From a virus: DNA of 40,426 nt. The DNA is taken from the IMG/VR virus record IMGVR_UViG_3300029815_000032; one strand, 5' to 3'. Of this stretch, positions 762 to 38,749 are shown piece after piece (within the stretch, counting starts at the first letter, position 1; each line of letters begins with the position of its first letter). The notes below the pieces were generated by a model. The model searched no databases. It was not told the DNA's origin and saw only the letters and a list, made by a program, of their open reading frames with translations. The translations under genes were made by a program, and so were the position numbers.

Positions 762-777
762 TGAAAGGAGAACCAAT

Positions 778-1877: not shown

Positions 1878-1895
1878 ATTACGAAAGGAGAAACC

Positions 1896-2228
1896 ATGGC
1901 AGAGGAATTAACAGCAAGAGTGTCTGTCTTGGAAGAAAAGATCAAGGTCTCTAACCACCGCATTGATGATCTGGAAGATAAAACAGATCGTATTGAAAAG
2001 TTGACTTTATCAGTTCAAAAACTGGCTATGTCGGTTGAGCAGATGGCAAAGGAGCAGATCGACTATCGTGCCAAGCAGGATCAGATCGCAAATAAACTGA
2101 TCGAGTTGGAGCAGGCACCGGCAAAGGACAAGGCTAAAAAGGTAGACAGTATCCTTACATATGTAATGCAACTGGTCGTAGCCGCTTTCGTTGGTGCAGT
2201 TCTAGCATATATTGGAATAAGCGGATGA
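1896..2228 (+). CDS. xhlA: XhlA-like haemolysin / lysis accessory protein (N-terminal coiled coil plus C-terminal TM helix).
   Basis: AAAGGAG RBS. Coiled-coil N-terminus and C-terminal hydrophobic helix (LVVAAFVGAVLAYIGI). Sits directly before the holin and endolysin. Confidence 0.65.
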   Translation: MAEELTARVSVLEEKIKVSNHRIDDLEDKTDRIEKLTLSVQKLAMSVEQMAKEQIDYRAKQDQIANKLIELEQAPAKDKAKKVDSILTYVMQLVVAAFVGAVLAYIGISG

Positions 2229-2244
2229 GAAAGGAGTGAGGAAC

Positions 2245-2478
2245 ATGAAGAATTGTGTATTTAAAGCGTCTGTGAATACAAAGCAGTGGCTTGTTGCAGC
2301 AGGAGTAAGAGCGACCAAGACCATGGCGCAGACGGCGCTTGCGCTTTTACCGGCGGCGGCAACTATTTCACAAGTTGATTGGAAAACAGTAGTCGGTACA
2401 GCGGCTTTAGCAGGTATTGTATCGATTTTAACGTCGATCGTTGGCATCCCGGAAGTAACATGTAATGAAAATAAATGA
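2245..2478 (+). CDS. Holin.
   Basis: ATG 2245 with AAGGAG 8 nt upstream (the track GTG at 2236 is less likely). 77 aa with two hydrophobic segments (VRATKTMAQTALALLP..., GTAALAGIVSILTSIVGI). Located between xhlA and the amidase. Confidence 0.75.
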   Translation: MKNCVFKASVNTKQWLVAAGVRATKTMAQTALALLPAAATISQVDWKTVVGTAALAGIVSILTSIVGIPEVTCNENK

Positions 2479-2495
2479 ACAGGAGGAAAAAAAGA

Positions 2496-3524
2496 ATGAG
2501 AATTAACGTTCATGCCGGTCATAACCCGGAAGGTAAAATTGCTTGTGGAGCAAGAGGAATTTTAGATGAATCCAGAGAAGATCGCATCATCAAAAACAAG
2601 GTGATCCAGTTACTCCGTGCAGCAGGACATGAGGTCTTTGATTGTACGGTTGACGATGGAACAAGCCAGAGCGATGTATTGAGAAGAATTGTAGAGAAAA
2701 GCAATTCCCACGATGCTGATCTTGATGTCAGCATCCATTTGAATAGCGGCAGAAACGACTATGTCGGAGACGGTTCTATTGGTGGTACGGAGGTTTTTGT
2801 TTTCAACATTTCAGAAAAGAACAAGACTGCTATTGCCTACGGTAAGGCTATTGTGGAAAAGATCGGAGATATCGGTTTCCGCATCCGTGATGATGCTATT
2901 CCGGATCATATTAAGACAGACTCACAGTTGTATGTTCTTAGAAATACGAAAGCACCTGCCGTTCTGGTAGAATGTTGCTTTGTTGATGACAAGGACGATG
3001 CAGATCTTTACAATGCGGATAAGATGGCACAGGCTATCGCAGACGGTATTATTTCACTTGCCGGCTCGTCAGCACCGGTACAGACACCAGAGGTAACACC
3101 GACACCAGTGCCAGCACAGACAGGACACAATGTAAGTGATACCGTTTCGTTCAACAAAATCTACAGTACAGCAGATTCAACCACACCGCTCAATCCCAGA
3201 GTGACATCCGGTAAAATTACAAAGATCCTTGCAGGAAGAGCAAATCCATATCTGATCAACGGCGGTACCGGATGGGTCAATGACGGATGCATCACCGGTG
3301 GCGGATCAGTTGCTCCGGCGGCTCCAGCGGTAAATTACTACCCGGCATATACCGGCGGTAGTAACTCAATCACAGAGGCGTTGAAGTCGCTTGGCGTGGA
3401 TTATTCAATGGCACACCGTCAGAAGATCGCATCTGCCAATGGTATCGGTGGTTATGCAGGAACTTACACTCAGAACGTCACAATGCTGACACTGTTAAAA
3501 CAGGGCAGATTGATTTCTGCTTAA
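2496..3524 (+). CDS. Endolysin: N-acetylmuramoyl-L-alanine amidase (Amidase_3 type) with C-terminal putative cell-wall-binding domains.
   Basis: AGGAGG RBS before ATG 2496. N-terminal MRINVHAGHNPEG...SIHLNS...VLVECCFVDD pattern is typical of MurNAc-LAA amidases. A Pro/Thr linker is followed by C-terminal domains. Confidence 0.85.
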   Translation: MRINVHAGHNPEGKIACGARGILDESREDRIIKNKVIQLLRAAGHEVFDCTVDDGTSQSDVLRRIVEKSNSHDADLDVSIHLNSGRNDYVGDGSIGGTEVFVFNISEKNKTAIAYGKAIVEKIGDIGFRIRDDAIPDHIKTDSQLYVLRNTKAPAVLVECCFVDDKDDADLYNADKMAQAIADGIISLAGSSAPVQTPEVTPTPVPAQTGHNVSDTVSFNKIYSTADSTTPLNPRVTSGKITKILAGRANPYLINGGTGWVNDGCITGGGSVAPAAPAVNYYPAYTGGSNSITEALKSLGVDYSMAHRQKIASANGIGGYAGTYTQNVTMLTLLKQGRLISA

Positions 3525-3582: not shown

Positions 3583-3840
3583 ATGGATAGAAGCCTACTG
3601 GTGCGCTTTTGGAATTGTGGAGACGATCAGATCATCCAATTTGCAGTTCAAAGAGCGCACTTAAACAGGCACGAAAGAGAAGTATTGCATCTTATGCTTG
3701 ATGAATGTAAAACACAAGAAGAAACAGCAGAGATACTTGGATATAGCACGCGACGAGTGCAGAAATTTTGGTATGACGGAGCCGATAAACTCCTTCATAT
3801 ACCTTGGGTTGAAGCATATGCTAAGACTATCAAGGGTTAG
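3583..3840 (+). CDS. Small sigma-70 region-4-like HTH protein (85 aa), a putative transcription regulator.
   Basis: HEREVLHLMLDECKTQEETAEILGYSTRRVQKFWYDGADKL resembles the region 4.2 HTH of ECF and late sigma factors. No region 2 is present. Last gene before a terminator. Confidence 0.55.
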   Translation: MDRSLLVRFWNCGDDQIIQFAVQRAHLNRHEREVLHLMLDECKTQEETAEILGYSTRRVQKFWYDGADKLLHIPWVEAYAKTIKG

Positions 3841-3870
3841 TATCCTCCATCAACATTCTTTTTAGAGAGA

Positions 3871-3898
3871 AGAGAACTGTAAAAGGTTCTCTTTTTTC
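3871..3898 (+). terminator. Rho-independent terminator after the lysis/regulator operon.
   Basis: Stem agagaac / gttctct with an 8-nt loop, followed by TTTTTT. Confidence 0.7.
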
Positions 3899-6039: not shown

Positions 6040-7353
6040 TTAGTGTCCTATTTTTATGTTCAGGGTCTTATCCGGGAGAACTTCTATAGATGATATAAAG
6101 GATCGCCAGAAGGCTCTCTTGTGTATGTCGTCAAGTTTTATGTATGTCTCTTTCCAGTTGTCATCCAGTATGATAGGTTCCCTGTCTGACATCATTCTGT
6201 CAAGGTCTGATATGTCACGGAGAATAAGTTCGCGCTTTTCCTTGTATTCCTCAACTGACAGATCGCCGACCTCAAATCGTATGCCTACTCGCTCCAACTT
6301 CTGCTCTAAAGCCTTTCGCTTATCTTTGGCATCGGACTTCTTTTCTTCGTTTGATAAATTGATGTTGTATTTGCTTATGATGGTTGCTATCTGATCGAGC
6401 AGATACTTCTCGACCTTCCTCTCACTGATCGTGAGCCTTTTTTCGTGCTTCGTAGCATAAGTTTTACCATCACAGACATAATACTTGCAACGAACTTTTC
6501 CAGTTTTGATCTGGTTGGTTGAAGATTTTGCGCCCATCCTGTTACCACAGTAACCGCAGATCATTAGTCCAGAAAAAATGTAATTTATGCCACCCTTAGG
6601 AGTGCGTATATATTGTGACATATTGTCTATGATCTTCTGATGATCTTCTGCCGTAATGTATGCCGGACATGCAAAGCCGTTCATATCGCCTGCATAGATG
6701 GGGTTCTTTAATCGCTTGCGCATCGCGTTCATATTTACATTGTAGCCGACGGCTTGCAGGGCTTCCATGGTCCTGGTGGAAGAATATGTCATCAGGTAGG
6801 TTTTAAACATCAATTCAACCAGTGGAGCAACCGTCTCGTCCTTGACCAACTTCTTATCCACACGCTTGTAACCATATGGCGGGGTTCCTACATAGTCGCC
6901 CTGTGCGCGCTTGTAATCAAATACCGATTTGATACGTTCACTTGTCCGATCAGCCTCTGACTGTGCCACGGATAGCATGATATTTACCTTGAATACACCG
7001 GAGGAAGTCTCGGTCTCATAGTCTTCCCAGATGGCGCGCCAAGGGACATGACAGGCATCAAGCCGTGTCTGTACTTCGTAGTAGTCTGCCACAGATCGAA
7101 ACCACCTGTCTAATTTGGTAAACAGAATGACATCTATCAGTCCGCGCTCACAATCTTCGATCAGTTGCAGCAGGGCAGGACGTTTTTTATATGATTTTCT
7201 GGCAGAGATACCGGCATCATTGTAAAGACCGACTTCCTGTAAGTCGTTTTGTTTGCAGTAGTCGCGGAGTGCCACAATCTGACTATCCACGGATAGACCG
7301 TGTTTCTTTTGCTCATCCGTCGATACACGGACATATAAAGCACATCGTTTCAT
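6040..7353 (-). CDS. int: Large serine recombinase (putative integrase).
   Basis: AAGGAG RBS before ATG 7353. N-terminal resolvase catalytic motif MKRCALYVRVSTDEQ...GLSVDSQ, a recombinase domain, a Cys cluster (CGYCG...CKYYVC) and a C-terminal coiled coil. Adjacent to the immunity region. Confidence 0.9.
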   Translation of the reverse strand: MKRCALYVRVSTDEQKKHGLSVDSQIVALRDYCKQNDLQEVGLYNDAGISARKSYKKRPALLQLIEDCERGLIDVILFTKLDRWFRSVADYYEVQTRLDACHVPWRAIWEDYETETSSGVFKVNIMLSVAQSEADRTSERIKSVFDYKRAQGDYVGTPPYGYKRVDKKLVKDETVAPLVELMFKTYLMTYSSTRTMEALQAVGYNVNMNAMRKRLKNPIYAGDMNGFACPAYITAEDHQKIIDNMSQYIRTPKGGINYIFSGLMICGYCGNRMGAKSSTNQIKTGKVRCKYYVCDGKTYATKHEKRLTISERKVEKYLLDQIATIISKYNINLSNEEKKSDAKDKRKALEQKLERVGIRFEVGDLSVEEYKEKRELILRDISDLDRMMSDREPIILDDNWKETYIKLDDIHKRAFWRSFISSIEVLPDKTLNIKIGH

Positions 7354-7373
7354 AGCAACCTCCTTGAATGTAT

Positions 7374-8003
7374 TTATTCTTTTTTCGCTGATATTAGTTG
7401 TGATAAACATTCTGCACGGAATTCATCTATGCGATTATCTTTTCTAACCAGTAATTTTGACGTGGCATACATGAGTTTGTAGCAGTAAGAACCCAAATCT
7501 GTCATTTCATGGGAATTTTCAATGTTATTTTTTTCAAAAATTTCTTCGACTAAGAATTCATAATATGTACATAAAAAGAAAAGTCTTTTATGTAAGCATT
7601 TACGATATAGGAAATAATTAAAATTTTTTAGATTGTTTTGTTGCCTAAAGAATTCGTGCAACAGCCATTTTCTATAATCGTCAATGTATTTATAAAAAAA
7701 CTTTATATCATTTTCTGTAAGTGAAATAGGCAAGTCGCCATCATCGATTATATATTGTAAAAGGTAATTGGCATGCTCATAATACACATCTCCAACAGCT
7801 TCTTTTATATTATATGTATAGGAAAATTTAAATAATTTATAAATCATCACATATATAATGATAAAAGCAATGGCAAAACATGCCCTTAATTTTTTTTCGT
7901 CTGAACTTATGGATAAAAAAAGATTTACTGCTCCGGACGGGATTATAACAATCAATAGTCCGATTAGTATATATATTCCTAATGATTTTAAAAAATTAAG
8001 CAT
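7374..8003 (-). CDS. AT-rich gene for a two-TM membrane protein with a helical cytoplasmic domain. Candidate superinfection-exclusion, Abi or defence moron.
   Basis: AGGAGG RBS, ATG 8003. Two N-terminal hydrophobic helices. Composition is visibly far more AT-rich than the flanks. Sits between the integrase and repressor genes. Confidence 0.65.
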   Translation of the reverse strand: MLNFLKSLGIYILIGLLIVIIPSGAVNLFLSISSDEKKLRACFAIAFIIIYVMIYKLFKFSYTYNIKEAVGDVYYEHANYLLQYIIDDGDLPISLTENDIKFFYKYIDDYRKWLLHEFFRQQNNLKNFNYFLYRKCLHKRLFFLCTYYEFLVEEIFEKNNIENSHEMTDLGSYCYKLMYATSKLLVRKDNRIDEFRAECLSQLISAKKE

Positions 8004-8247: not shown

Positions 8248-8273
8248 AACTCCTGCTCTAGTCGGCAGGAGTT
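8248..8273. terminator. Hairpin shared by the convergent genes 8143..8241 (+) and 8258..8647 (-).
   Basis: Stem aactcctgc / gcaggagtt, flanked by an A-run upstream and a short T-run (TTT) downstream. Overlaps the last codons of the repressor gene. Confidence 0.55.
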
Positions 8274-8647
8274 TCTTTATCGTCCACAGCAGCGATAAAT
8301 TCTCGTGCCTTTTGAACGAAAAGTTCCAGATCTTCTCCCGGTGCATCTGCAACCATTCTAATCAGTTTCGTTTTGAGATAAGGTTCAACGTCTCTTAGCA
8401 TCACATCGGCAATCCTTGCGACTTCCACCTCACGACCGCTAATGGTAAACATATCTCCAGTGCCATTTCGCAGCCATTCCTCACTTACTCCATACTCACG
8501 GCATACCGCCGATATAAACTGGTTAGTCATGTTGCGCTGACCGGATTCTATCAAAGAGATTGAACTTCTAGACATTCCAAGTCTACCGGCGAAATCTTCC
8601 ATATTTAGATCGAAATATGCGCGAACCTCTTTTAAGCGTTCTTTCAA
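8258..8647 (-). CDS. XRE-family HTH repressor (CI-like, without an S24 peptidase domain).
   Basis: TTG start with AAAGGAAG RBS. LNMEDFAGRLGMSRSSISLIESGQRNMTNQF is a classic HTH_3 motif. Divergent from the early operon. Confidence 0.85.
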   Translation of the reverse strand: MKERLKEVRAYFDLNMEDFAGRLGMSRSSISLIESGQRNMTNQFISAVCREYGVSEEWLRNGTGDMFTISGREVEVARIADVMLRDVEPYLKTKLIRMVADAPGEDLELFVQKAREFIAAVDDKETPAD

Positions 8648-9091: not shown

Positions 9092-9688
9092 ATGGAGAAT
9101 TTGAGTAAAGAAGATGCATTGATACTAGCCATCCCATGGATGCATAGGACGTTCACGGTGTATTTGCACGAACATAAAGTGAACTTGGAAAACTATAAAG
9201 AGCACATGGGATGGATACAAATGCACCTAGAATATATGAATACCATCCTAAGTGCATTTACCGAGGAAGAAAAGAAAAATCTGGGGATCCTCATCACAAG
9301 TGAAGAGGAACTTGTTGAATGGCTGAAAGAGTACGGTTGGAACGAAAAAGAGGATTTCATTCCAACCGATAGCATGGGAACTAAATATTCGAGTCAATCA
9401 CGTTCCATTGCTCCTCCGACAGCCAAGCAGTTAGATCTAGAAGATGCTCTGGTAATTGCATTACTACATATTGACAGAAAATTCAAATCAACACTTCGTA
9501 ATTGTAAGGTGTCAGAGCAAAATCTAGAAACATTTAAACCCATGACAGAAAATCATTTTTTTGTCATAAAGCCATTGATCAGTGCATTACCAGATGAAGC
9601 ACAGAAAGTGATCAATCAATCCATGATTGCGGATGAAGTTGGATTGGCTGATTGGGTAAAAAATGTTGATCGTGATACATCTTATTAA
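9092..9688 (+). CDS. Hypothetical early protein with two related halves.
   Basis: AGGAAGGAG RBS. EDALILAIPWMHRTF... and EDALVIALLHIDRKF... suggest an internal duplication. Confidence 0.6.
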   Translation: MENLSKEDALILAIPWMHRTFTVYLHEHKVNLENYKEHMGWIQMHLEYMNTILSAFTEEEKKNLGILITSEEELVEWLKEYGWNEKEDFIPTDSMGTKYSSQSRSIAPPTAKQLDLEDALVIALLHIDRKFKSTLRNCKVSEQNLETFKPMTENHFFVIKPLISALPDEAQKVINQSMIADEVGLADWVKNVDRDTSY

Positions 9689-9845
9689 AGTTATTTATGC
9701 AGTTTTCACATTGGAAATTTAAGTGGTCATAAAACTCACAACCACAGCCCATGAAAACTTTTTCGTTTACAGTTGCCACACCATAAGTCACATTACAAAA
9801 GCGTATAGGGCAGTAAGTTTTTACCGCAATATTATTAGTACTCAT
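9612..9845 (-). CDS. Small Cys-rich protein encoded antisense within the early region.
   Basis: Minus-strand GAAAGGAG RBS 7 nt before ATG 9845. CX4C, CGC and CX2C motifs within residues 12-49. The 3' end overlaps 9092..9688 by 77 nt. Confidence 0.5.
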   Translation of the reverse strand: MSTNNIAVKTYCPIRFCNVTYGVATVNEKVFMGCGCEFYDHLNFQCENCINNFNKMYHDQHFLPNQPIQLHPQSWID

Positions 9846-9904: not shown

Positions 9905-10014
9905 GAAAACCGAAACGGAAAGAAATCTTTCCGTCTGTCAGGGGTGGTGCTCTGGCACTGATGATGGTAGCCGATCAGACCAAAAGGGCGAGCATGGAAG
10001 AAAGGAGAAAGAAG

Positions 10015-16354: not shown

Positions 16355-16377
16355 ACTGAAAGATGGAGGGAAAACTT

Positions 16378-16785
16378 ATGAATTTGATAGATTTTGCGGC
16401 AATGTTAGATGGAAGAGAAAACGGATACCCGCAGTTCTCTGACGAGGAATTGAAAATTGCAAAAGAAAACAACATTGTTATAGTCACTGGCGCAAGTGAT
16501 GATCTTGTTGAACTTGAGGGAGCGATTTATGACGAAGGAGATTGCTATGAAGGTGGTAAAATATCTGTTAAAGCGATTCCGGGTGGTGGAATTGTCAACA
16601 ACTGTGAACGTTCAAATGTATGCAGTTTTATTGCTAAATGGTGTGAAGATAAGGACGAGCATGGTGTCACTATTCCACGGACATATGACGTACCATTTGA
16701 GCATGAAACCTTTATGATTTATGAGGATGGAGAGCCATACTGTAGAGGATTTATTTTTCGCACAGTAGAAGAAACTGATGTTTAG
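16378..16785 (+). CDS. Hypothetical protein.
   Basis: GGAGGG RBS before ATG 16378. Confidence 0.55.
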   Translation: MNLIDFAAMLDGRENGYPQFSDEELKIAKENNIVIVTGASDDLVELEGAIYDEGDCYEGGKISVKAIPGGGIVNNCERSNVCSFIAKWCEDKDEHGVTIPRTYDVPFEHETFMIYEDGEPYCRGFIFRTVEETDV

Positions 16786-16797
16786 AGAGGTAGAGGA

Positions 16798-17127
16798 ATG
16801 AGGACATACATAAGCGGTCCAATAACAGGGACGGCGGACTATAAAGAGAGGTTTGCAGCAGTTGAAGAGAACCCTGAATCAGTGGAAGTGATCGAGGGCG
16901 AAATCGTAGAAGATAAGCCGGAGATCGTGGAGCATAGCATAGAGGACATATTGGAAGCCATGCGTGTTATAAAGGAATCGTGCATAGCAGAAGATGAGAA
17001 ACATGATGGCTGCAAGATGTGCCCACTATACGACGAAAAGAGAGAGGACTGTGCTGTGATGTGGTCGGCACCGGATAAATGGAATCTGGAGATCAAAGGA
17101 AATAAGATAGATCTGTTAGGAGAGTAG
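16798..17127 (+). CDS. Hypothetical protein. The N-terminal ~22 aa resemble a DUF4406 (nucleoside deoxyribosyltransferase-like) N-terminus and the remainder is unrelated.
   Basis: MRTYISGPITGTADYKERFAA matches the DUF4406 start pattern, but the rest is acidic and Cys-containing and does not continue that family pattern. Confidence 0.5.
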   Translation: MRTYISGPITGTADYKERFAAVEENPESVEVIEGEIVEDKPEIVEHSIEDILEAMRVIKESCIAEDEKHDGCKMCPLYDEKREDCAVMWSAPDKWNLEIKGNKIDLLGE

Positions 17128-17129
17128 AG

Positions 17130-17504
17130 ATGGCAAAGCGTAAGAAACAGACAAGGGCGCATGATTTCACACCTACGATGCGACGCCGCATAGAAGATAG
17201 GGATATGGGTTGTATCTTCTGCCGGATGGGCTACCATATGCCGGAGAATGATTATTTTGCAACACATACTTTTTCAATCATGCACTACATACCAAGATCA
17301 CAAGGTGGATTGGGAATCGAACAAAATGCAGCAGTCGGCTGTATATATCATCATAATCTGATGGATAACGGAAGCAAGGGATTGCGCCCGGAAATGCTGG
17401 GGCTAATGAAAGCATATCTCCAGCGTATCTATCCTGGATGGAGCGAAGAAAACTTAACCTATAACAAATGGAAGGAGATGGAGGAACATGTTTACAAGGA
17501 CTAA
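17130..17504 (+). CDS. HNH-endonuclease-like protein.
   Basis: CIFC...MHYIPRSQGGLGIEQNAAVGCIYHHNLMD fits a CxxC...H-x-IPRSxGG...N...C..H HNH-like pattern. Confidence 0.5.
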   Translation: MAKRKKQTRAHDFTPTMRRRIEDRDMGCIFCRMGYHMPENDYFATHTFSIMHYIPRSQGGLGIEQNAAVGCIYHHNLMDNGSKGLRPEMLGLMKAYLQRIYPGWSEENLTYNKWKEMEEHVYKD

Positions 17505-18090
17505 CAAATTAAAGGTGATCTTCAAAGAGGCGTATGAGGATCACGCGCTGGATATCGGTCTAACACAGGATAACGTATATATCATTCGCGGGCATATCTT
17601 TATGCTGGTCTGTCCTGCGGAGCAGATTGATAATGAAGTATTAGCAGAGTTAGTCAAGTTGACCGGTGGGCTGCCGAATAAGGGCGAAGCCATTAGTTAT
17701 GTGAAGAACGACGAGCAACAGATGACGGATTTAGAATTTCTGCACGAAGATCTGTATGAACAGTGGGAAAAGGCAAAGAACCTGGTCCATGCAACAAGGA
17801 TGATTATATCCAGTGAAAGTGATATGCAGATCGTCTACCAGACGAAACAGTTGGAGCCGATCATGGTACCGGCGCGATTACATAATTGTATTGGGTTACC
17901 AAGAGGAGATAACGAAGAAATGCAGTCTATTCACCTGACCGAAGATGGAAAGTTGATTGCAGTCAGTAACGAGATGCAGTTCCGCTTTGACCAGCACAAG
18001 ATCAAGTGGCTCCAAGAATGGGAGATCCTTGATAAGCGCAAAGGCATTGACCTGAATTGGTCGCTTGTGGATGTCAATCTGTATCAGTAG
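17488..18090 (+). CDS. Hypothetical protein.
   Basis: GGAGG RBS; overlaps the upstream gene by 17 nt. Confidence 0.6.
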   Translation: MFTRTNKLKVIFKEAYEDHALDIGLTQDNVYIIRGHIFMLVCPAEQIDNEVLAELVKLTGGLPNKGEAISYVKNDEQQMTDLEFLHEDLYEQWEKAKNLVHATRMIISSESDMQIVYQTKQLEPIMVPARLHNCIGLPRGDNEEMQSIHLTEDGKLIAVSNEMQFRFDQHKIKWLQEWEILDKRKGIDLNWSLVDVNLYQ

Positions 18091-18184
18091 AAAATGGTTG
18101 AAACACCTCAAGAAGCAGCGATTTTACTTATACCACGAAAAGCCATGGCGCCGCCTCGTAAGTGGGGCGGCAGAAAGGAGCAAG

Positions 18185-18721
18185 ATGACAATCAGAAAGT
18201 GTCCGGTATGCGGAGGGGCGTTTGAGGCATATATGCGCCAGAAATATTGCAATGAAGCATGCGCAGAGAAAGCAGCATTAGATTTGCGCCAGAAACGATG
18301 CGAGAAAGAGAAAAAGAAAAGAGCGCAGGCGCGAGAAGAAAGGGAAAGGAAGAAAAAGACCACAAGCCTTGCGCAGGATGCTATGGATGCTAGAGACAAT
18401 GATATGACCTATGGCAAGTACATGGCAAAAAAGTACAAGGTAACGATCAGCAGGCGAGCATCATGCAGCAGGGGGGATAATATGTCAAATTTTAGTCAGG
18501 CAGGAAATATCAAATGTCCTTATTATGTAAACGCCAAAAACGAAAAAAAAGAAGCAAATTATATCACATGTGAGGGCAATGGATATGCAAGGTATTACAC
18601 ATCCAAATTCAAGAACAAAGAGGAGAGAAATAAGCATATCACAGAATATTGTGCAAAATATCCGAATAAATGCACAATATGTATAGCAAATGATACGAAA
18701 TTTCAACGAGAGGAAAGATAA
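18185..18721 (+). CDS. Two-part Cys-rich protein (N-terminal zinc-ribbon-like CPVCGG...C..C, basic linker, C-terminal Cys-rich domain).
   Basis: GAAAGGAG RBS before ATG 18185; the track start at 18065 lacks one. Confidence 0.55.
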   Translation: MTIRKCPVCGGAFEAYMRQKYCNEACAEKAALDLRQKRCEKEKKKRAQAREERERKKKTTSLAQDAMDARDNDMTYGKYMAKKYKVTISRRASCSRGDNMSNFSQAGNIKCPYYVNAKNEKKEANYITCEGNGYARYYTSKFKNKEERNKHITEYCAKYPNKCTICIANDTKFQREER

Positions 18722-18809
18722 CATCTCGTTTTTCACGAAAATAACGCTCTATTGAATTGATTTATCATGGCGTGATAATAGGGGTAACATATGGTGGGAG
18801 GTTAATTGG

Positions 18810-18938
18810 ATGTTAAAATATAAGTTTGACGTAAAGGATATGATTAAAGAGAAAGGGTATAATTCGACCAGAATTTTGAAAGAAAACTTGATAAGCCAGT
18901 CGGCGATGCAAAAGATACGCAAAGGGGATGTGAAATGA
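18810..18938 (+). CDS. Short (42 aa) XRE-like HTH fragment.
   Basis: GGGAGG RBS. ...MIKEKGYNSTRILKENLISQSAMQKIRKGD looks like the first two-thirds of an HTH_3/HTH_26 domain and then stops. Confidence 0.35.
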   Translation: MLKYKFDVKDMIKEKGYNSTRILKENLISQSAMQKIRKGDVK

Positions 18939-18986
18939 ACTTGACATAGTTGGAGAGTATAGAGTGAATTTCGTGTTGTAGGAGAG

Positions 18987-19307
18987 ATGGTTATGCTTGA
19001 AAAATTAGAGGGGACATTTGTTTACAAGGGTTATGAGTGCTATGTTATCTTGCGTAAGAAGGAAAATGGTATTCATTACCGATGCGGTTATGTGGCAATT
19101 CCAGAAGAAAAGGGCGTTGATACATTTAGTATAGACTGCCATGGCGGTATTACTTATGCAAATAAAATTGCACCTAGTCCGTTAGTAAGCGATAAAGACA
19201 AGTGGTATATAGGATTTGAGTGTGGATATGCATTTGACGATATTGGAGAATGGACCATAGGTAGAGTTAGTGAAGAATGCAGAAAGATTGTTGACCAGAT
19301 TTTGTAG
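18987..19307 (+). CDS. Hypothetical protein (the start may be ATG 18993).
   Basis: AGGAGAG RBS. Last gene before a terminator and the packaging operon. Confidence 0.55.
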   Translation: MVMLEKLEGTFVYKGYECYVILRKKENGIHYRCGYVAIPEEKGVDTFSIDCHGGITYANKIAPSPLVSDKDKWYIGFECGYAFDDIGEWTIGRVSEECRKIVDQIL

Positions 19308-19331: not shown

Positions 19332-19356
19332 AGCATCCGAGAGGGTGCTTTTTTTA
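19332..19356 (+). terminator. Rho-independent terminator ending the early/middle region.
   Basis: Stem agcatcc / gggtgct (one G-U pair), 4-nt loop, T8 run. Confidence 0.7.
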
Positions 19357-19375: not shown

Positions 19376-19414
19376 GGCCGGGGGGAGAAATGGCATCATC
19401 TGTCATTTTATAAT
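19376..19414 (+). promoter_or_regulatory. Late-promoter-like element, copy A, upstream of terS.
   Basis: GCCGGCC-GGGGGGAGAAA (G-box ends at 19390), 18 nt, TATAAT (19409..19414). Same spacing and flanks as copy B. Confidence 0.55.
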
Positions 19415-19472
19415 AAAAGAGTACAGATGTACTGACACTTCGGAAAGAAACGATGAGACAGGTGGTGAAATT

Positions 19473-23418: not shown

Positions 23419-23730
23419 ATGATAGAGGCAACCTTATTCAGATCAGGAAATACCTATAGTATTGATGTCACAGGTCATGCGGGATATGCGCCGGCTGGAT
23501 CAGACATCATATGTGCAGCAGTATCTGCACTGGTACAGTCGTTTGCGTTTTATTGCAGGAAGACAGACGGCATAAAGGTATTGGATGATGAAGCATCCGA
23601 GGGGATGGCAAGTATGGTCGTATATGGCAATCAAAGCAAGATAGACCCGGCATATGAGATGCTGAAAACAGGACTTTGGGAAATTTCTTTAAATTTTCCT
23701 AAAAATATTTTGGTGCGGGGGGAGAAATGA
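23419..23730 (+). CDS. prp: Prp-family (DUF464, ribosomal-processing cysteine protease-like) protein.
   Basis: MIEATLF...IDVTGHAGYAPAGSDIICAAVSALVQS matches the Prp GHA...G.DIVCAAVS motif, with the His and Cys dyad present. Confidence 0.75.
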   Translation: MIEATLFRSGNTYSIDVTGHAGYAPAGSDIICAAVSALVQSFAFYCRKTDGIKVLDDEASEGMASMVVYGNQSKIDPAYEMLKTGLWEISLNFPKNILVRGEK

Positions 23731-23751
23731 CAGGTAATGCCATTTTATAAT
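23713..23751 (+). promoter_or_regulatory. Late-promoter-like element, copy B, upstream of the scaffold/capsid genes.
   Basis: GGTGC-GGGGGGAGAAA (ends at 23727), 18 nt, TATAAT (23746..23751). Overlaps the 3' end of prp. Confidence 0.55.
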
Positions 23752-23807
23752 AAAAGCATAAAGATCTTTCCCCTTTATGGGTGACACTTCGGAAAGGACG
23801 ATGGAAT

Positions 23808-24731
23808 ATGGAAAAATTATTTGATTTACAGTTATTTGCCGAGGGCGGTGGAGCACCGGCAGGAGGCGAAGCAGGTGGAACTGTAACAACGGGAGTAGAA
23901 GGAGGCAGCCCCGAGCCTCAAGGCGAGGATTTATCCAAGGTCATTTATGGGAAATCCATTGAGGATGTAGCCGATCCACAGGGTGATACCACCAAGCCAC
24001 CAGAGGACAAGACCAAGACTTTTGAGAACCTTATCAAAAAGGGCGGCGAGTACGAAAAGGAATTTTCCAAACGTACACAGGACATTATCAACAAGCGTTT
24101 TAAAGAGACAAAGCAGTTGCAGGAGCAGTTGAACAGTCGCACACCAATTATGGAGACGCTTGCACGCAAGTATGGTCTAAAGGCAGATGATGCCGAAGGG
24201 ATCATGAAAGCACTGGATAGTGATACCGCCATGTATGAGAAAGCGGCTTTTGACGAAGGACTGACAGTGGAGCAGTACCGGGAGCGTGAGCAGTTAAGAC
24301 GCGAAAACGCACAGTTGAAAGCGGCAGAAGATGAACTCAAACAGAGGGAACAGTCACAAAGGATCTATGCACAGTGGGAGCAGGAATCCAATGATTTTGC
24401 ACAGAGATACGGAATCAAGGATTTTGATCTTGCCACAGAAGCACAGAACCCGGAGTTTACCAGACTGTTAGCAAACGGCATTAGCATTGAGGCGGCATAT
24501 AAGGCGATCCATTTTGACGACATGATGAATGGAGCAATGGCACAGACAGCCGACAATGTGAGTAAGGCTCTGGCAAGCAGAGTTGCCACAAGAGCCAATA
24601 GGGTCTCTGAAAACGGTGTTGATTCTCAAAACAACAACAGTATCTTCAAGTCAGATGTGAATAAGTTGACAGATGCAGATCTGGCAGAAATTTGTAGGCG
24701 GGTAAAGAATGGAGAGAAAGTCTCTTTCTAG
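23808..24731 (+). CDS. Scaffolding protein with an L27-like N-terminal leader.
   Basis: ATG 23808 (MEKLFDLQLFAEGGG...). Highly charged and helical. Directly precedes the major capsid gene. Confidence 0.75.
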   Translation: MEKLFDLQLFAEGGGAPAGGEAGGTVTTGVEGGSPEPQGEDLSKVIYGKSIEDVADPQGDTTKPPEDKTKTFENLIKKGGEYEKEFSKRTQDIINKRFKETKQLQEQLNSRTPIMETLARKYGLKADDAEGIMKALDSDTAMYEKAAFDEGLTVEQYREREQLRRENAQLKAAEDELKQREQSQRIYAQWEQESNDFAQRYGIKDFDLATEAQNPEFTRLLANGISIEAAYKAIHFDDMMNGAMAQTADNVSKALASRVATRANRVSENGVDSQNNNSIFKSDVNKLTDADLAEICRRVKNGEKVSF

Positions 24732-24754: not shown

Positions 24755-25744
24755 ATGAATAAGAACAGAAGACTTATGAATTTGCAGATGTTCGCAAATT
24801 CTAACACAAACGTAACAACAGATTCCGGCATGACTGCCGAGATGAAAACCTTTTACGACAAGAACTTGATCCGTATGGCGAAGGCAAATCTGGTACATGA
24901 CCAGTTTGCCCAGACCAGAGACATCCCTAAGAATGGCGGTAAGACGGTAGAGTTTCGACAGTATGATCCACTGCCAAAGGCAAGCCAGCCATTAACAGAA
25001 GGTGTAACACCGGATGGCAAGAAGTTGTCCGTTAAGACCAAGACCTCTACGGTAAAGCAGTATGGCGATTATGTAGAGTTATCAGACGTCCTGATCATGA
25101 CGGCGATCGACAACAACGTGGTAGAAGCAACAGAGATTTTAGGAGATCAGGCAGGACGTACCTTGGATTCCATCACACGAGATGCGATCAACTCAGGTAC
25201 CAATGTCATCTATGCAGGTGGAAGAACTTCGCGTAAGACCTTGACTGACGAGGACACCTTAAAGCCTATTCTTTTTGAAAAAGCGGCAACCCAGTTAAAG
25301 GCGGCAAACACACCTAAGATCAATGGATCCTATGTAGCGATCATCAATCCGTATGCATCTTATGATCTGCGTACCTCGGATGAATGGATCGAGGTACATA
25401 AGTACGCGGATGCAACACCGATCTTTGAGGGCGAGATTGGAAAACTTGGCAATGTGAGATTTGTAGAATCTACAGAAGCCAAGATCTGGAAAGATGAGTC
25501 ATGCCCGGAAGGAAAGGCAGTATTCAGCACGCTTGTCGTTGGGTTAAATGCCTATGCAACCACTAAGGTAGAAGGTGGCGGCTTACAGACCATCATTAAG
25601 CAGTTGGGATCCGGTGAAGACCCATTGAACCAGAGAGCAACGGTCGGCTGGAAAGCAATCAAGACGGCAAAGATTTTGGTAGAGCCATATATGGTCCGTA
25701 TCGAATCCCTGTCAGCGTATTCAGCAGACGTAGATGCTAACTAG
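24755..25744 (+). CDS. Major capsid protein (HK97-fold type) with an L27-like N-terminal leader.
   Basis: GAAGGAG RBS. MNKNRRLMNLQMFANS... then ...FYDKNLIRMAKANLVHDQFAQ...GGKTVEFRQY, typical of major capsid proteins. 329 aa. Confidence 0.85.
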   Translation: MNKNRRLMNLQMFANSNTNVTTDSGMTAEMKTFYDKNLIRMAKANLVHDQFAQTRDIPKNGGKTVEFRQYDPLPKASQPLTEGVTPDGKKLSVKTKTSTVKQYGDYVELSDVLIMTAIDNNVVEATEILGDQAGRTLDSITRDAINSGTNVIYAGGRTSRKTLTDEDTLKPILFEKAATQLKAANTPKINGSYVAIINPYASYDLRTSDEWIEVHKYADATPIFEGEIGKLGNVRFVESTEAKIWKDESCPEGKAVFSTLVVGLNAYATTKVEGGGLQTIIKQLGSGEDPLNQRATVGWKAIKTAKILVEPYMVRIESLSAYSADVDAN

Positions 25745-29536: not shown

Positions 29537-32500
29537 ATGGCAAAAAGAAAAACGTTTGACGAAATCTTACAGGAGCGCTACGGATCAAGTGAGGATGAAA
29601 GCACCGGAGTAAATGATAGATCCTATGATGATATCATGCTCGAGCGCAGATTGAGTGGAAAGGAATCTGATAAATGGACTTCGGATATGACGAAAGCCTT
29701 TAATCAGGGCAACAGATACTCCAAGCAGGCATATGAAGGGGCAGTGGAGATTGCTAAGAACAGCAGAAGAGTAAAAACCGGCGCAGAGCGTTATGGCTTG
29801 TTCTCCGGTGGAAATGAGGAAATGAATAAGGGGATCCTGCATAAGGCATCCAATTATATCAAGTCTAAAATCGATGACGGAAAAAGTGAGATCACAGAGG
29901 AAGAAAGTCTGAAACATGCAAGTAATGTGCTTGCCGGAGTATCAGAGGACAACCAGGCACTTTTGAAAAAGTATGTGGACGCACAGGATTCCAGTAAGAG
30001 CACTCCGTTTATGTATCTGATGAATACGGATTCGCCGGTCATGCAGAAACAGCAGATGAAGGACAGTGAGACCATGGACGCGGTAAAGAAGCAGTTCATG
30101 GAAAATACCGGTGTTGATGAAAAGACCTTTAATAAGATGGTCGCCAATTATGGATATACATACCATGCCGACGAGAACGAAAAACAGAAAAAAAAGTTGC
30201 AGCAGTCATCAGGAGCAACAAAAGCACTTGCCAGTGCCGTAGATGTCTTAGCGTCTCCGGTAACTGGTTTTGTAGCATTGGCGGGTACCGGAAAGAACCA
30301 GGTAGACCCGGAACTGGGAAGGGATAAACACACAGTCTATTCTTCACTGAAAGATTTTTCAGAGAACACGGAAGAGGCTGTGTTAAACGATGCAGAAAAG
30401 ATCGATAATAAGGCACTGCGTACCGCGGCAAAGGGGGCATACGAAATCGGCATGGCGACCGGAAAGAGTGCAATGAGCATGATGACCGGTAGTGAGGCGG
30501 CAAGTGCGCTGGGGCTGACCGGAAAGAGTGCAAGAGCCGTGGCAAATCTGGTATCACTGCCGCAGTTTGGCGCGTCATCTTATGTATCTACACTGGAAGA
30601 GGCACAGGAAAGAGGACTTGATACAAAGGACGCTTACCGGACTGCACTTGTCGCAGGTGGAGCAGAGATGGCGACCGAGGTTATCTCACTGGAAGGCATC
30701 TGGGATATTTTAGAGAGCAAAGGAAAAGTTGCTGCAAAGACTGCGATCGGAAATGTATTGAAGCAGAGTTTCTTTGAGGGATCCGAGGAAGTGGCAAATG
30801 ATCTTATCAATGAGATTGCGGATGGATTGATCAATGGGGACAAGAGTAAGTACGTCCAATCCGTCCGGTATTATATGTCAGATCAGTATGCAAAGGAAAA
30901 TGGACTGGATGCACCACTTTCAGAGGATGAGGCTAAGAAAAAAGCCAATATTGACTTTGCAAAGAGTACAGCGATAGATGGTTTCCTTGGTGCGGCCAGT
31001 GGTGGACTGATGGGTGGTGCGGCAACGGCGATCAATGCCTATGCCAATACAAAAGGCGGTCAGTATTTGAGTGGCAACGAGCAGATCCGGGATGATATTG
31101 TACTGAACAAGGATTCAGAAAATTATATCTCTGATGACAGAGCAGATTATGACAGCGAGGAAGACTACCAGAAAGCCCAGGCTGCCATTGAGCAGTTGAT
31201 TGATGACTCAGGCGAGAAGATTTCCGGTAAAGAGGCTAGAAGTCTGTATCAGAATGTGGCAGAGGCTATCGGAAGTCAGAACTCAAACCGGGCAGAGGCA
31301 AGAGTGCAGCGTGAGGTAGAGACAATCGAGAGCGCACAGACCCCGGATGAACTCGTGAGAGCCACAGAGAGCGTGAAGAATGATGTTCCAGAAGTGCAGC
31401 AGGCTATCGACAATACAAAGGCTAGAATGGTCGCACAGGGAGCGACACAGGCAGACTTTGACAATGTAGTTACACCTACCAGAGCATACGAGATGGCAAA
31501 AAGAGGACAGGTTTCTGAAAGTGATCTTGCATCCATGTCTACCGATGCAAGACGTGCGGCAGAAGCAGGAATTTCAGAGAGTGTAAGTGCGGATATTAAG
31601 AACGTGACGAAGTTCGATGCATCTACAGTCCTTGTAAAGGAAAATGGCAAGGCAAAGCAGACCAACATCACAGGAGAAGTCACCAAGAGCGGAGATCAGT
31701 ATTATCTGACGACCAAGAAGGGAGCAAAGGTCGAACTGTCAGAGGATATTTTAAGTGGAACGACCAAAGCAAACGGAGATAATACAAAGGGAAAACTTCT
31801 CATGTATGGTAATAGCCATGCAGCAGGCATTATTTCATTGGAAGACCCGGAACTCATGACGATTGCCTTGCAGACCAAGATCAATCAGCCAAGCGTACCG
31901 TCCACAAGTATTGTAAAGGCTGTGAAAACCTTTAATACATTAGGGCGTAGTGGGGTGTCCTTTGAATCTATTGTAAACGATAAAAAGCAGAAGTTTATGG
32001 TTGATGCGATCGGGGAAAAGGTACTGCGACAGGCATATGATCTGGGAGCAAAAGAAGGTGCGCTGGATGAAGAGAAGATGGCAAACCCTACCACGAAAAA
32101 AGGAAATGGTAAGGTTTCTTTTGCGAGCCGGGAAGCAGAGGGCGCATATGAAAAACTGGATCATGCAAATAAGACTTTTTTGGATAAGTTTGCTGAAAAG
32201 ACAGGAGTAGATTTTGAAATCTTTACCGATGATGCGGATGCAGAGGGAACGGTCAGAGGACAGTATGTGCCGGAAGAAGGAAAGATCCGTCTGAATGTGG
32301 CAGAAGATACAGATATCTTAGAAGTTGCCATGCATGAAGGTATAGGCGAGTTCTTAAAGGCACATAATGCCAAAGGCTATGCAGAGATCACAGAGACGAT
32401 TTTAGATTACTATGCAGAGAATAATGCGGATGCATTGGCAAAGCGTATTGAGGACTACAAGAGAGCCTACAGCGATGAGGAAGGAAAGTCTACCAGAGGA

Positions 32501-35500
32501 AGTGCAGATGAACTTGTAAACGATGTGCTGGCAGAAATCTTTTCGGATGATGCCGGTATTGAGAAACTGGGAACATGGCTTTTTGATAATGGTAAGGAAA
32601 AAGAAGCAAAGACGATCAAGGACGTGCTGATTGATTTTATCAACCAGATGAAGTCATGGATTGCAGACATCAAGGCGCAGGGTGGACTTTCTGCTGCGGA
32701 GCGCAGCAAACTTTCCATGACCGAAAAGGATATGGATGCATTGCAGAATAGGATCCTAAAGGCAATGGATGAGGCTATTGCGAACAGGGATAGCAGAGCC
32801 GAGGGCGAGACTGCGGAGCAGAGCATTAGAAATTCTGTGAAGGTTGATGCCAATGGAAAGCAGTATGTCGAGATCGACGAGGATATTATCAAGGGTATTA
32901 CTGGAAGTAAAAATATCAAGTCTGCTGTGCGTGCCTATATAAAAGAAAATTATCCTTCGATTGATATGATGGGATTTAAGTTAGGAATAAATGCACAATC
33001 GAGAAATGAATTTGTAAACTCCAAGACATCGCAGTATATGCAAAACAAATTAAAGAGATTTTTTATAGACAAAATGCGTATGGCAGGAAATCTGGAGGAA
33101 ATTGTAAATGTAGGAGACGGATATACATGGGAAGATATCAAGCACTCCAGGAAAGACAGACTAATTGGATTTGTCAGAGGAAATGTGCAAATTAGAGTAG
33201 GAAGCAATGATTATATTGCAGATATTGTATTGGCTGATGATAAGACCAAAGGATTGATATTCTACGATATTGTAAACATGAAGTCTACAGCAATAAAAGA
33301 AGCACCTACAGAGCGTACACATGAAAATCATGCGGCTCAGGTCGCAGGTGCTTCTACAGATAGTATATCCCAAAATAAAAAAAATGCAACCGAAATCGCT
33401 GAAAAAGGTAGAAATTCTGTAAAAGTTGAAGCAGAAACTCATGCCAGGGACGCAGAAAGGTTCTTTGGGACTACAAGGAACTGGTCTTATGCAGGTTATC
33501 TTGATATCAATGGAAAACTCTTAGATTTTTCTGATGGACAAAGATACCGAGTGCAGGATCATAGAGAAATAAGTGAGATTTTAGATTTACCAGAAGATGC
33601 AGGATATTCAGACGGCCTTATTCAGTTTATGGCAGAAGGTAATATCAGAATGCAGAAATATGGCATTGATATATCTGTCACACCTAATGAAGCACAGAAA
33701 GGTCGCCTGAGAGACTTCTTTAATCATCTTGAAGGAGAGGTTACTGTAGACTTTAGTGCTCTTAATGGGGATTCTGTGGGAAGTGCAGATTATACAGAGG
33801 GCACATCTGCAACGAGAATTCTAAATGATATTGATACATTCTTTGTGACTGGGGAAGTACCAGAAGGAACGTATAATGGAATCAATGAGTTTAGATATTC
33901 AAAGAAGGTAGACTCAGAAGGCAGAAAATTAACCGAAGCACAGCAGGAATACTTCAAGAACTCAAAGGCTGTAGATGAAGATGGAAATCTTATGACAGTG
34001 TACCATGGAACAGTCAGAGAGTTTTATGAGTTTGACCGGGAGCAAGGAAATCCAGAGGGAAACTTTGGTACAGGAATCTATTTTACTAACAATGAGGCTG
34101 ATGTTGACGAAAATTATGCGAACGAAAAGGGATCAGATCTGACAAATAAAATAGAACTTGAAGCAGACATGCTGGAGGGTACTGATGAATATGAGGATAT
34201 GGATCATGACGAGATTGTAGAAGCATTGAGAAAGAAATATATCACATCAGATGAGCCTATAACCATGGAGTGCTACTTAAACATAGAAAATCCGTGTTAT
34301 GTAGATTCTACTATGCTTTTAGACAATGTCGAAGACTATATGGGAGAAACCATTGAAGACTTTGCAGACGAAGATGAATATTATGAAGCACTGGATGAAA
34401 AAGCGGCAGAGATTGTAGATGATATTGTCGGAGAGATTAGTAGTAACATTGAATTATATAGCGGTACAGATGAAGTAGCAGCAATACTGGGAGAGGCACT
34501 GATGGATGGTGGTATTGCCGTTGAGGATCTGCGCGCGAGATTAGATGAATTATACCTAGAGGATGAAGAAGGGAGAATTGTATCAAGTGAGGTTTTGCGT
34601 CAGATTATAGAATCACTAGGATATGATGGAATTATTGATAGCACAGTGTCTGATAAATTTAAAAATATGAACTTATCAGAAGACATAACGCATTACATTG
34701 TATTCAATTCTAATCAGGCAAAATTTGTGTCGAATGAAAATCCGACAACCAGTGGGGATGTACGTTATTCCAGAAAAGTAAAAGATGCGCGTAAGTCCAT
34801 CAAAGAATACGGCATCGTAAGCCCATATCATGACACACTGAATGAGGCAAACGTAGTATCTGCCATTATGGGAAAAATGAATGAAGCCTTGGATGGAGTG
34901 AGTGTTGATCTTAATGGTGTTATGGATGTGACTAAGAGTATCATAAAGAAATATGATGCTGACATCAGCACAAATGATCTGGCAGGAGCAATCTGGCAAA
35001 CGTTCAGTTACATGAACAATAACCAGATGGAGACAGATTACCAGGGAATGATGGACTACCTGTTGAATATCGGTGACGAGGTCATTGCGACGTCGCAATT
35101 AAAAAATGCGGATCAGCAGGCAGTGTATGATGAGGTCAGAAAGCAACTGCGTACACATGCTATCCATTTAACCAAAGCCGACCGTGCGGAACTCGTTCAT
35201 AGATACGGATCATGGAATGAGGCTTTTGGGGCAATCCAGCAAGCCGGGATAAAGTTAGATAATAACGGCATCAGGATAGATTCTGCATATGGAGATATCC
35301 GAAATGAGATCATGAAATTATCCGGTGTGCAGATGTCGGAAGAGACAACGGCGGCAGATCAGATTGTAAATATCATTGATACGGTATCATCACTTGAACC
35401 GGAGGTAAGCACCTTTGAGGGCGCAAATGACCTGGATAAAAGTCTGATGGTTGCGTCTGACATCATCGATGAATACTATACGCGTGCAGTAAAGGAAATG

Positions 35501-38743: not shown

Positions 38744-38749
38744 AAGAAA

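Follow-up and report, generated by a model that had tools for sequence, protein, structure and literature searches.

Four copies of a short guanine-rich element, which we term the ‘G-box’, look from their sequence and setting like parts of the predicted promoters of four late transcription units, in a temperate phage of gut Clostridia (genome of approximately 40.3 kb; Gram-positive host) held under IMG/VR record IMGVR_UViG_3300029815_000032. The whole stretch of DNA that was analysed, 40,426 nucleotides in length, is referred to here as ‘the window’; it represents a circularly permuted complete genome of 40,327 bp, bases 1–99 being identical to bases 40328–40426 (terminal overlap). Our best overall explanation—one that we hold to be probable, if well short of assured—is that these are activator-dependent late promoters of the sigma-A type, each bearing a G-box, with an additional layer in two of them (copies A and B) provided by a conserved hairpin in the 5′ leader of the message. 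As far as our searches reach, the promoter class, the leader hairpin and a large unnamed family of small cysteine-rich proteins (‘CysB’, see below) are all undescribed.

RESULTS

A G-box ahead of each late transcription unit

The late genes would be transcribed as four units: unit A, with terS, terL, portal and Prp; unit B, running from scaffold and capsid through to the gene for a protein of 3068 amino acids (aa); unit C, with the tail fibres; and unit D, with an XhlA-like protein, holin and amidase. The decamer GGGGGAGAAA is found exactly four times in the whole window, at 1835, 19381, 23718 and 38788 and always on the plus strand, against 0.16 occurrences expected by chance; none of 100 dinucleotide-preserving shuffles reaches a count of four, and allowing one mismatch brings in no additional site. 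The composite pattern GGGGAGAAA-N16–18-KANAAT picks out the same four positions only (0.02 expected). All four late units have a G-box (4/4); the early/lysogeny region has none. The predicted promoter elements, together with the terminators that precede two of them, are as follows.

19332–19356, plus strand: intrinsic terminator closing the early operon, directly 5′ of promoter A (terminator scan; 7-bp stem at 19332–19349 with four G-C pairs, then TTTTTTT)
19380–19390, plus strand: G-box A (GGGGGGAGAAA), at the -35 position of the predicted terS promoter
19409–19414, plus strand: -10 element TATAAT of promoter A, 18 nt past the G-box; transcription would start at approximately 19420–19421
23717–23727, plus strand: G-box B, at the -35 position of the predicted scaffold/capsid promoter
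23746–23751, plus strand: -10 element TATAAT of promoter B, 18 nt past the G-box
38748–38780, plus strand: intrinsic terminator after the gene for the 3068-aa protein, directly 5′ of promoter C (stem at 38748–38773, AGAATCCAGA-GTAAAA-TCTGGGTTCT, then TTTTTTT; read directly)
38788–38797, plus strand: G-box C, at the -35 position of the predicted tail-fibre promoter
38812–38820, plus strand: TG-extended -10 element of promoter C, TGaGAAAAT, with its hexamer GAAAAT 17 nt past the G-box
38834–38845, plus strand: leader and Shine-Dalgarno block TTACGAAAGGAG of C; fibre start codon at 38851
1835–1844, plus strand: G-box D, at the -35 position of the predicted lysis-cassette promoter
1859–1867, plus strand: TG-extended -10 element of promoter D, TGaGACAAT, with its hexamer GACAAT 17 nt past the G-box
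1879–1890, plus strand: leader and Shine-Dalgarno block TTACGAAAGGAG of D; start codon at 1896

These positions agree with an earlier note on this DNA, made from the sequence alone, which had placed the decamer on the plus strand in front of four late operons, had set copies A and C directly after terminators, and had seen an 18-nt spacer, a perfect TATAAT and an identical block in both A and B; the pattern is also confined to the four late sites, as a scan for exclusivity within the genome confirms. Its remark that there was no other copy with five Gs does not hold as worded: nine further runs of five Gs lie on the plus strand (5232, 5717, 11098, 12581, 18471, 19587, 22624, 28731 and 30433), none of them continuing into AGAAA.

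Comparing the copies with one another, we see that A and B share the 18-nt spacer to TATAAT plus the identical block CATTTTATAATAAAAG, with 16 identical bases around the -10 element, and that C and D have approximately 35 nt in common, CATGAGA(A/C)AATAT...TTACGAAAGGAG, their short and unstructured leader ending in TTACGAAAGGAG. The earlier note had taken C and D for a second architecture and had proposed two sub-classes of promoter. The classes are real as classes of sequence; however, the ‘CATGAGA’ of C and D supplies the TG of an extended -10 element, the hexamer of which lies at a spacing of 17 nt from GAGAAA, such that all four copies are of one architecture and have the same promoter core throughout, the difference between A/B and C/D lying in the flank of the -10 element and in the 5′ leader.

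A -10 element of the sigma-A type is found in all four cases, either as TATAAT (A, B) or as GAAAAT/GACAAT with an upstream TGn (C, D). At the -35 position, by contrast, the available hexamer (GAGAAA or AGAAAT) has at most three of six matches to TTGACA, and a generic scan for sigma-A consensus promoters called none of the four sites. The rightward early operon is driven by a canonical promoter at 8730, TTGACA-17-TATATT, and the G-box is thus unlike the early promoter, as had been suggested before (GAGAAA matching TTGACA at three of six positions).

The terminators directly upstream of A and C mean that read-through cannot serve units A and C, and that late expression of these must start at the promoters proposed here. 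G-box B sits within the final codons (Gly-Glu-Lys-stop) of the Prp gene (23419–23730). Upstream of promoter D, the gap of approximately 500 nt that separates it from the fibre genes is occupied by a minus-strand open reading frame (ORF) of 157 aa (1393–1866), which converges on the fibre gene; its own upstream region would overlap promoter D.

A function as promoters is the only reading that fits all four contexts, given that the elements stand at the head of each late unit, on the coding strand and at a fixed distance from the -10 element, and that they are conserved (see below). We rejected two others. As a ribosome-binding site for a mini-ORF, the G-box would be too closely spaced: A and B do have an ATG 2 nt after GGAG, opening a frame of seven codons, but C, D and the relatives do not. 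Patterns of -10 and -35 elements of the sporulation/sigma-H type were set aside on reading the sequences, as the CAT that precedes the -10 elements of the window is not kept in relatives.

Conservation of the box and its spacing

Two sets of sequences were used for comparison: 36 IMG/VR loci with a TerL at 57–78% identity, in which the head modules are as in the window and terS and the early regions are mosaic; and dozens of prophages returned by scanning one genome per species with the motif of the A/B leader (see below), which belong to Acutalibacteraceae, Oscillospiraceae, Lachnospiraceae and other Clostridia. Individual loci are given L-numbers.

GGGAGA(A/G)A, followed after 16–18 nt by a -10-like hexamer, stands before terS in L008, L009, L011–L018, L020 and L035, and before the scaffold gene in L008, L009, L014, L020 and L032, as well as in approximately 14 Clostridia prophages. 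Copy C has its equivalent in L165 at 8131 (tagGGGAGAAA-18-TATAAT), located right after the gene for a giant polyvalent protein and before the fibre genes. The scan of relatives that the earlier note had envisaged therefore finds the box at the same positions, before terS, scaffold and fibre genes, and the box is thus not private to this genome. The spacer measures 17 nt in 13 of 14 independent sites, and the consensus of the relatives reads YGGGGAGA(A/G)A-17 nt-TATAAT, often TG-extended.

In a G-box-anchored set of 23 sites from outside the window, the spacers and flanks are unrelated. What stands out is the box, preceded by an additional (T/C)G at its 5′ side, and a -10 element that is frequently extended by TGn; of these, the core box and the -10 element belonged to the pattern by which the sites had been selected, the 5′ YG and TGn did not. 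Taking the window and these 23 sites together, the -10 consensus is TAtAAT, often TGn-extended. Fixed 17-nt spacing before terS, scaffold and fibre genes, in many relatives with differing spacers and flanks, indicates that the G-box is under selection.

The box is uniform within a genome and differs between genomes, variants across the G-box phages including GGGAGAAA, GGGAGAGA (L045, L046, L068, L114 and L156), GGGGGCGAAA (2–3 times in L157) and GAGGGGGCA (L006 and L028). Uniformity within genomes coupled to drift between them is the pattern expected from a phage-specific trans factor and its sites.

At some loci the box is also part of a hairpin. L165 (8120–8165) and L089 (approximately 2285) have GGGGA-GAAA-TCCCC followed by a run of Ts, a terminator that overlaps the promoter; in L157 (10860–10900 and 15260–15290) the box is one arm of a hairpin CCCC-AAAA-GGGGG. 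The copies in the window lack a partner arm of either kind.

A conserved hairpin in the A and B leaders

Beyond the -10 element, A and B have a further block in common, UGACAC-UUCG-GAAAG(A/G)(A)(A)-CGAU-G, which is conserved far more widely than the G-box and folds as a short stem with a purine-rich loop.

19431–19460, plus strand: leader hairpin A, with UGACAC, stem UUCG/CGAU and loop GAAAGAAA (covariance model, 30.4 bits); a separate Shine-Dalgarno sequence follows, then the terS start at 19473
23780–23808, plus strand: leader hairpin B, with UGACAC, stem UUCG/CGAU and loop GAAAGGA (covariance model, 32.7 bits)
19420–19433, plus strand: variable 5′-terminal hairpin of leader A, GUAC-AGAU-GUAC, just before UGACAC (minimum-free-energy and centroid folds)

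In leader B the loop itself serves as the Shine-Dalgarno sequence, 9 nt ahead of the scaffold start at 23808. The position held by GUAC-AGAU-GUAC in leader A is taken in relatives by hairpins unrelated to it in sequence. Tandem and divergent copies of the conserved hairpin also occur, and these retain UGACAC, the closing G-C pair and the GAAAGA loop.

The stem is supported by covariation. Compensatory versions include GCGG/CCGC, GCAG/CUGC, CCGG/CCGG, AUCG/CGGU, GAGG/CCUC and GUAG/CUAC, amongst others. In an alignment of 36 sequences, 90% of cells pair against 66% in shuffles, and none of 500 shuffles reaches 90%; double changes are seen at three of the four pairs, and the signal is lost when the partner columns are slid. 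Because some of the 36 sequences had been chosen with a pairing filter, we repeated the test with a signature based on sequence alone: 10 of 12 unique instances with a non-UUC 5′ half-stem are fully complementary at the three variable pairs, for which chance would give approximately 5%. A covariance model returns two hits in the window, the A and B copies, and 50 in the relatives, all of them on the coding strand, covering the scaffold leader of almost every relative and the terS leader of L001–L005 and L035. Thermodynamically the hairpin is weak by itself. Rfam gave no hit covering it at E<=1 for the whole window or at E<=10 for the two leaders, and its sequence had no match in the literature.

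The register between loop and start codon is informative. In the 25 unique leaders with GGA-containing loops, the loop is followed at 6–11 nt by the start codon, and no further Shine-Dalgarno sequence is present; in the 63 leaders with GAAAGA loops the start codon is a median of 18 nt away, and in 46 of the 63 the stem is directly followed by a Shine-Dalgarno sequence of its own. This register implies that the hairpin presents or abuts the ribosome-binding site. Most likely, then, it acts on the packaging and head genes by way of translation initiation or of the stability of their mRNA; possibly it is an operator for some protein. The idea that it mimics the leader of host rpmA (L27) was dropped, as none of approximately 120 genome hits precedes a gene of L27 size.

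The main alternative to a role in translation is that the hairpin acts as a site of the lambda nut/boxB kind, loading a processive antiterminator for the long late operons. In form it is indeed boxB-like, having a 4-bp stem and a purine-rich GAAAGA loop beside a conserved single-stranded block, 10–25 nt past the predicted start of transcription; it lies just 3′ of the promoter, is often in tandem, stands at the start of the two longest units (of 4.3 and 15 kb) and, being so weak, would need a protein to be stable. Saying this, its position tracks the start codon and not the promoter, the GGA loops being the sole Shine-Dalgarno sequence of their leaders, and its UGACAC is unlike boxA. Moreover, the hairpin in many prophages follows a terminator-like hairpin rather than preceding one, and no N-like arginine-rich protein was identified, although none was looked for systematically. 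We consider a nut-like function improbable.

One arrangement that we observe at Acutalibacteraceae loci (L037, L044, L059, L070, L073, L092 and others) is a scaffold leader hairpin preceded by a terminator-like hairpin plus TTTTTATATATATG, in place of a G-box promoter.

Candidate readers of the G-box

The earlier note had named three stretches as possible regulators (3583–3840, 18185–18721 and 18987–19307), and we examined these along with other products of the phage. Across approximately 50 ORFs, Pfam and NCBIfam show no full sigma factor with a sigma region 2, although a very divergent one could be missed. The 85-aa ORF at 3583–3840 (plus strand) has sigma-70 region 4 only (Pfam, E = 5.8e-6) and recalls the LtrA family of late activators (PMC3753634). 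In three other phages its relatives, at 60–100% identity, always follow closely on the endolysin, and not one of these phages has a G-box within 10 kb of its tail/lysis genes; furthermore, it has no relative in IMG/VR, a collection rich in G-box phages; it is disfavoured, and we consider it unlikely to be the reader. The family keeps its place directly after the endolysin and an ORF of approximately 47 aa in L162–L164 and in the window, despite quite different tails, and in the window a strong terminator follows it (approximately 3860–3895).

The ORF at 18987–19307 (phrog_2164) has no homologue in the G-box relatives searched and was set aside, as were those at 18810–18938, 17488–18090 and 16363–16785, for which a weak match to 17488–18090 in L097 was all that the G-box relatives returned.

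The remaining one of the proposed stretches fares somewhat better.

18185–18721, plus strand: ORF of two joined small cysteine-rich proteins, for which we use the working labels ZnR and CysB

ZnR (approximately 18185–18470) is zinc-ribbon-like (CxxCG...YC..C) with a C-terminal GMTYGxY motif. CysB (18482–18721) is here a four-cysteine protein of 79 aa, from a family of 70–80 aa with invariant C12, P13, C30, C57 and C64; though it lies in one frame with ZnR with no intervening stop, it keeps its own Shine-Dalgarno sequence (AGGGGGGA) and an ATG at 18482. In relatives the two are separate genes; in the window they form a fused frame. ZnR and CysB are the only non-structural proteins common to the window, the L008/L012 group and L035; one of the two, however, also occurs in phages that have no G-box. 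In most relatives CysB lies 0.7–1.3 kb upstream of terL. The family is large (a search of 1.84 billion representatives gives 3,602 clusters at E <= 1e-3), matches nothing in Pfam or PHROG and has no name in any of the sources; its AlphaFold model (pLDDT 76, the predicted local distance difference test score) has three strands and two helices.

Gene content of the window

Other genes of the phage are laid out as follows.

6040–7410, minus strand: serine recombinase, lysogeny/early region
8258–8647, minus strand: XRE-type repressor, lysogeny/early region
From 19473 (terS start codon), plus strand: terS, then terL and a P22-type portal; late unit A
23419–23730, plus strand: Prp cysteine protease (PF04327, E = 7e-17); late unit A
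23808–24731, plus strand: scaffold; late unit B
24755–25744, plus strand: major capsid protein; late unit B (an internal virion protein is also among the late genes)
29537–38743, plus strand: 3068-aa polyvalent protein, with an ART-PolyVal ADP-ribosyltransferase domain at residues 1480–1536; end of unit B
38851 wrapping to 761, then 736–1392, plus strand: tail fibres; late unit C
1896–3524, plus strand: lysis cassette of XhlA-like protein, holin and amidase; late unit D

Since the genome is circular with a 99-bp overlap, the fibre gene that begins at 38851 continues at the start of the window, to 761. Products of the early operon include replication-associated, RNase H, ParB-like and 3′-phosphoadenosine-5′-phosphosulphate (PAPS)-reductase-like proteins. 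A search for close relatives among GenBank phages gave only weak terL matches, to unannotated gut contigs.

Both scaffold (MEKLFDLQLFA/EGG) and major capsid protein (MNKNRRLMNLQMFA/NSN) begin with an L27-like Prp cleavage motif, and an NLQxFA leader is also seen on most of the scaffold homologues of relatives. The 3068-aa product, encoded in a single ORF, is a giant polyvalent and probably ejected protein; similar ORFs of approximately 2,700–3,300 aa are present in L163 and L165. A non-coding gap of the early operon contains a type II hammerhead ribozyme (9908–9976, plus strand; Rfam RF02276; 49.1 bits, the gathering score being 37; E = 2.9e-7), and on the strand opposite there is a TATAAT promoter-like site plus the block TTTTACGAAAGGAG, ahead of a 77-aa cysteine-rich ORF (9612–9845, minus strand).

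DISCUSSION

Proposed activator dependence and its alternatives

In the mechanism that we propose, each of the four promoters would combine a -10 element of the host sigma-A type with YGGGGGAGAAA, situated 17–18 bp upstream in place of a -35 hexamer. RNA polymerase with sigma-A would be unable to use such promoters efficiently on its own; a phage protein, probably encoded at the distal end of the early operon, would bind the asymmetric G-box over the -35 position and recruit the polymerase, in a manner that would resemble the action of Mu C or T4 MotA at late/middle promoters. We see dependence on an activator as most likely because late promoters that serve lysis genes must be silent in the lysogen, and because a strong -10 element coupled to a non-functional -35 is the classic layout of an activator-dependent promoter; that a phage factor reads the G-box is what we infer from this. 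At A and B only, the mRNA would start with the conserved hairpin, carrying or abutting the Shine-Dalgarno sequence, and this would most likely set or regulate translation initiation, or the stability of the mRNA, for the packaging and head genes.

As to the identity of the activator, CysB has a position that mirrors that of the Ltr activators (see below), and in mosaic phages an activator linked to its target promoter is what one would expect. From their distribution amongst the genomes compared, ZnR and/or CysB are candidates for the reader of the G-box, albeit weak ones whose claim we regard as doubtful.

A number of points weigh against the proposal, or against these two proteins as a part of it. 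A TG-extended or consensus -10 element can work without a -35, such that activator dependence is likely rather than certain. At copy B and the sites homologous to it, some of the conservation could stem from the coding of the Prp C-terminus (Gly-Glu-Lys-stop), and in L165 and L089 the box doubles as the 5′ arm of the terminator hairpin. The CysB model matches no known DNA-binding fold, a Foldseek search against the PDB having given nothing; in Acutalibacteraceae prophages the CysB stop codon abuts terS with neither promoter nor G-box; L160, which has a different head module, carries CysB with neither G-box nor hairpin; and the CysB proteins of phages that have the same G-box are only 20–30% identical. 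ZnR, for its part, was not detected in some phages with G-box-like sites, for example L097 and L004.

Instead of a site for an activator acting with sigma-A, the G-box might be the -35 element of an alternative sigma factor, either a divergent one encoded by the phage or one of the host. The box lies exactly at -35 with a fixed spacing of 17–18 bp, is short and asymmetric in the manner of a target for sigma region 4, and its GGGAGA resembles the AGGAGA found at -35 in the middle promoters of Bacillus phage SPO1, which are read by gp28; several early ORFs, furthermore, are without annotation. We nevertheless judge this rather unlikely: the -10 element is not distinctive, being the sigma-A consensus and often TGn-extended; the ORFs scanned hold no sigma region 2, and the one sigma-like protein among their products is limited to region 4 and is not found together with G-boxes; and the variation of the box between phages is a poor fit to a host sigma factor.

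The promoters might also be ordinary sigma-A ones, able to work without any activator by virtue of a strong or extended -10 element, with the G-box acting as an operator for a repressor that silences the late genes in the lysogen, or having arisen as a by-product of terminator or coding sequence. Consensus or TG-extended -10 elements would suit such an account, as would the overlap of the box with the terminator stem in L165 and L089 and, at copy B and homologous sites, with the region of the Prp stop codon. Set against this, the same 10-mer is found at the same distance from the -10 element in four unrelated contexts of one genome, in two of which, A and D, no terminator stem or coding sequence is involved; the box is single and asymmetric, unlike typical repressor operators, and has no copy near the repressor/early promoter region. 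We rate this possibility as quite improbable. Lastly, that the four copies are relics of a recent duplication within the genome, with no function of their own, is very improbable and already contradicted by conservation: the bases common to A/B and to C/D would be in keeping with it, but between the two pairs only the G-box and its -10 spacing are shared, and the box recurs both in phages with a TerL only 57–78% identical and in prophages of several Clostridia families.

Implications

For the temperate phages of human-gut Clostridia (Lachnospiraceae, Oscillospiraceae, Acutalibacteraceae), abundant as they are, control of late genes is essentially uncharted. The signature YGGGGAGARA-17-TATAAT would permit late operons to be annotated straight from metagenomic phage sequence, and the G-box gives a concrete handle for finding the activator; G-box promoters could also supply tightly phage-dependent promoters for the engineering of bacteria that are hard to manipulate. 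The leader hairpin is a separate, well-supported candidate for a new cis-regulatory RNA, tied to head genes whose products are processed by the phage-encoded Prp protease.

Taken to its fullest extent, the picture would be of an undescribed and widespread class of late promoter in gut Clostridia phages, for which very small zinc-binding proteins of a new family (CysB, possibly with ZnR) would be the activators, and coupled to a new ribosome-binding-site hairpin that sets the translation of terS and scaffold. We offer this as speculation, unlikely to be right in all its parts; if true, the CysB family would constitute a fifth, structurally unrelated counterpart of the RinA/ArpU/Ltr activators.

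Comparison with known systems

In function, the closest parallels are the Ltr superfamily, phage Mu and the middle promoters of T4. The Ltr superfamily (RinA, ArpU, LtrA with sigma70_r4, LtrB with DUF1492, and LtrC) comprises activators required for packaging, morphogenesis and lysis genes; their genes close the early region, immediately 5′ of terS, and are linked to the target promoter. The late genes form one long operon under a single promoter, PterS, and the activators bind to direct repeats that lie upstream of it (PMC3753634). The present phage, unlike the Ltr arrangement, has four promoters with one box apiece at -35, and no direct repeats upstream of PterS. No RinA, ArpU, DUF1492 or sigma70_r4 hit was obtained in the ORFs from 16363 to 19307, beside terS, and the sole protein with sigma region 4 is encoded downstream of the endolysin and differs from the G-box in its occurrence amongst phages. 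On the features compared, therefore, the phage does not belong to the Ltr system. Nor do its late promoters look like an alternative-sigma regulon, since no sigma gene was found in the ORFs scanned and the -10 element is of the housekeeping type.

Phage Mu has four C-dependent late promoters (Plys, PI, PP and Pmom) in one temperate phage (PMC4461284). As in the Mu C system, we see four late promoters of a temperate phage with a common element that overlaps the promoter. The late promoters of Mu are poor targets for sigma-70, hence their need for this element, and the activator C is made earlier in the cascade, binding as a dimer to a dyad site that spans approximately -30 to -55. The G-box differs in being a single asymmetric 10-mer at -35, in a phage of Gram-positive Clostridia for which no Mor/C homologue was detected.

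The middle promoters of T4 that respond to MotA/AsiA keep a sigma-70-type -10 element and replace the -35 with a short asymmetric MotA box at -30, to which a phage protein binds as a monomer. Retention of the -10 element and a short box in place of the -35 are features that the G-box promoters have in common with these; the sequence and position of the box differ, however, the phage here is temperate, and MotA and AsiA homologues were not detected.

For the A/B hairpin, the nearest likenesses are boxB of the lambda nut sites and hairpins that act as translational operators, such as the coat-protein operator of MS2 or the autoregulation of P22 scaffold. The A/B hairpin resembles these as a short stem with a conserved purine-rich loop, located in a phage 5′ leader and probably in need of a protein partner. 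It departs from them in its loop of 6–8 nt, its invariant closing G-C pair, the UGACAC that precedes it and the way in which it doubles as, or abuts, the Shine-Dalgarno sequence. Synthesis of scaffold in P22-like phages is itself autoregulated after transcription. Set beside these systems, we class the finding as one of activator-type phage late promoters that have a new, conserved box in place of the -35 element, the logic that underlies them being a familiar one.

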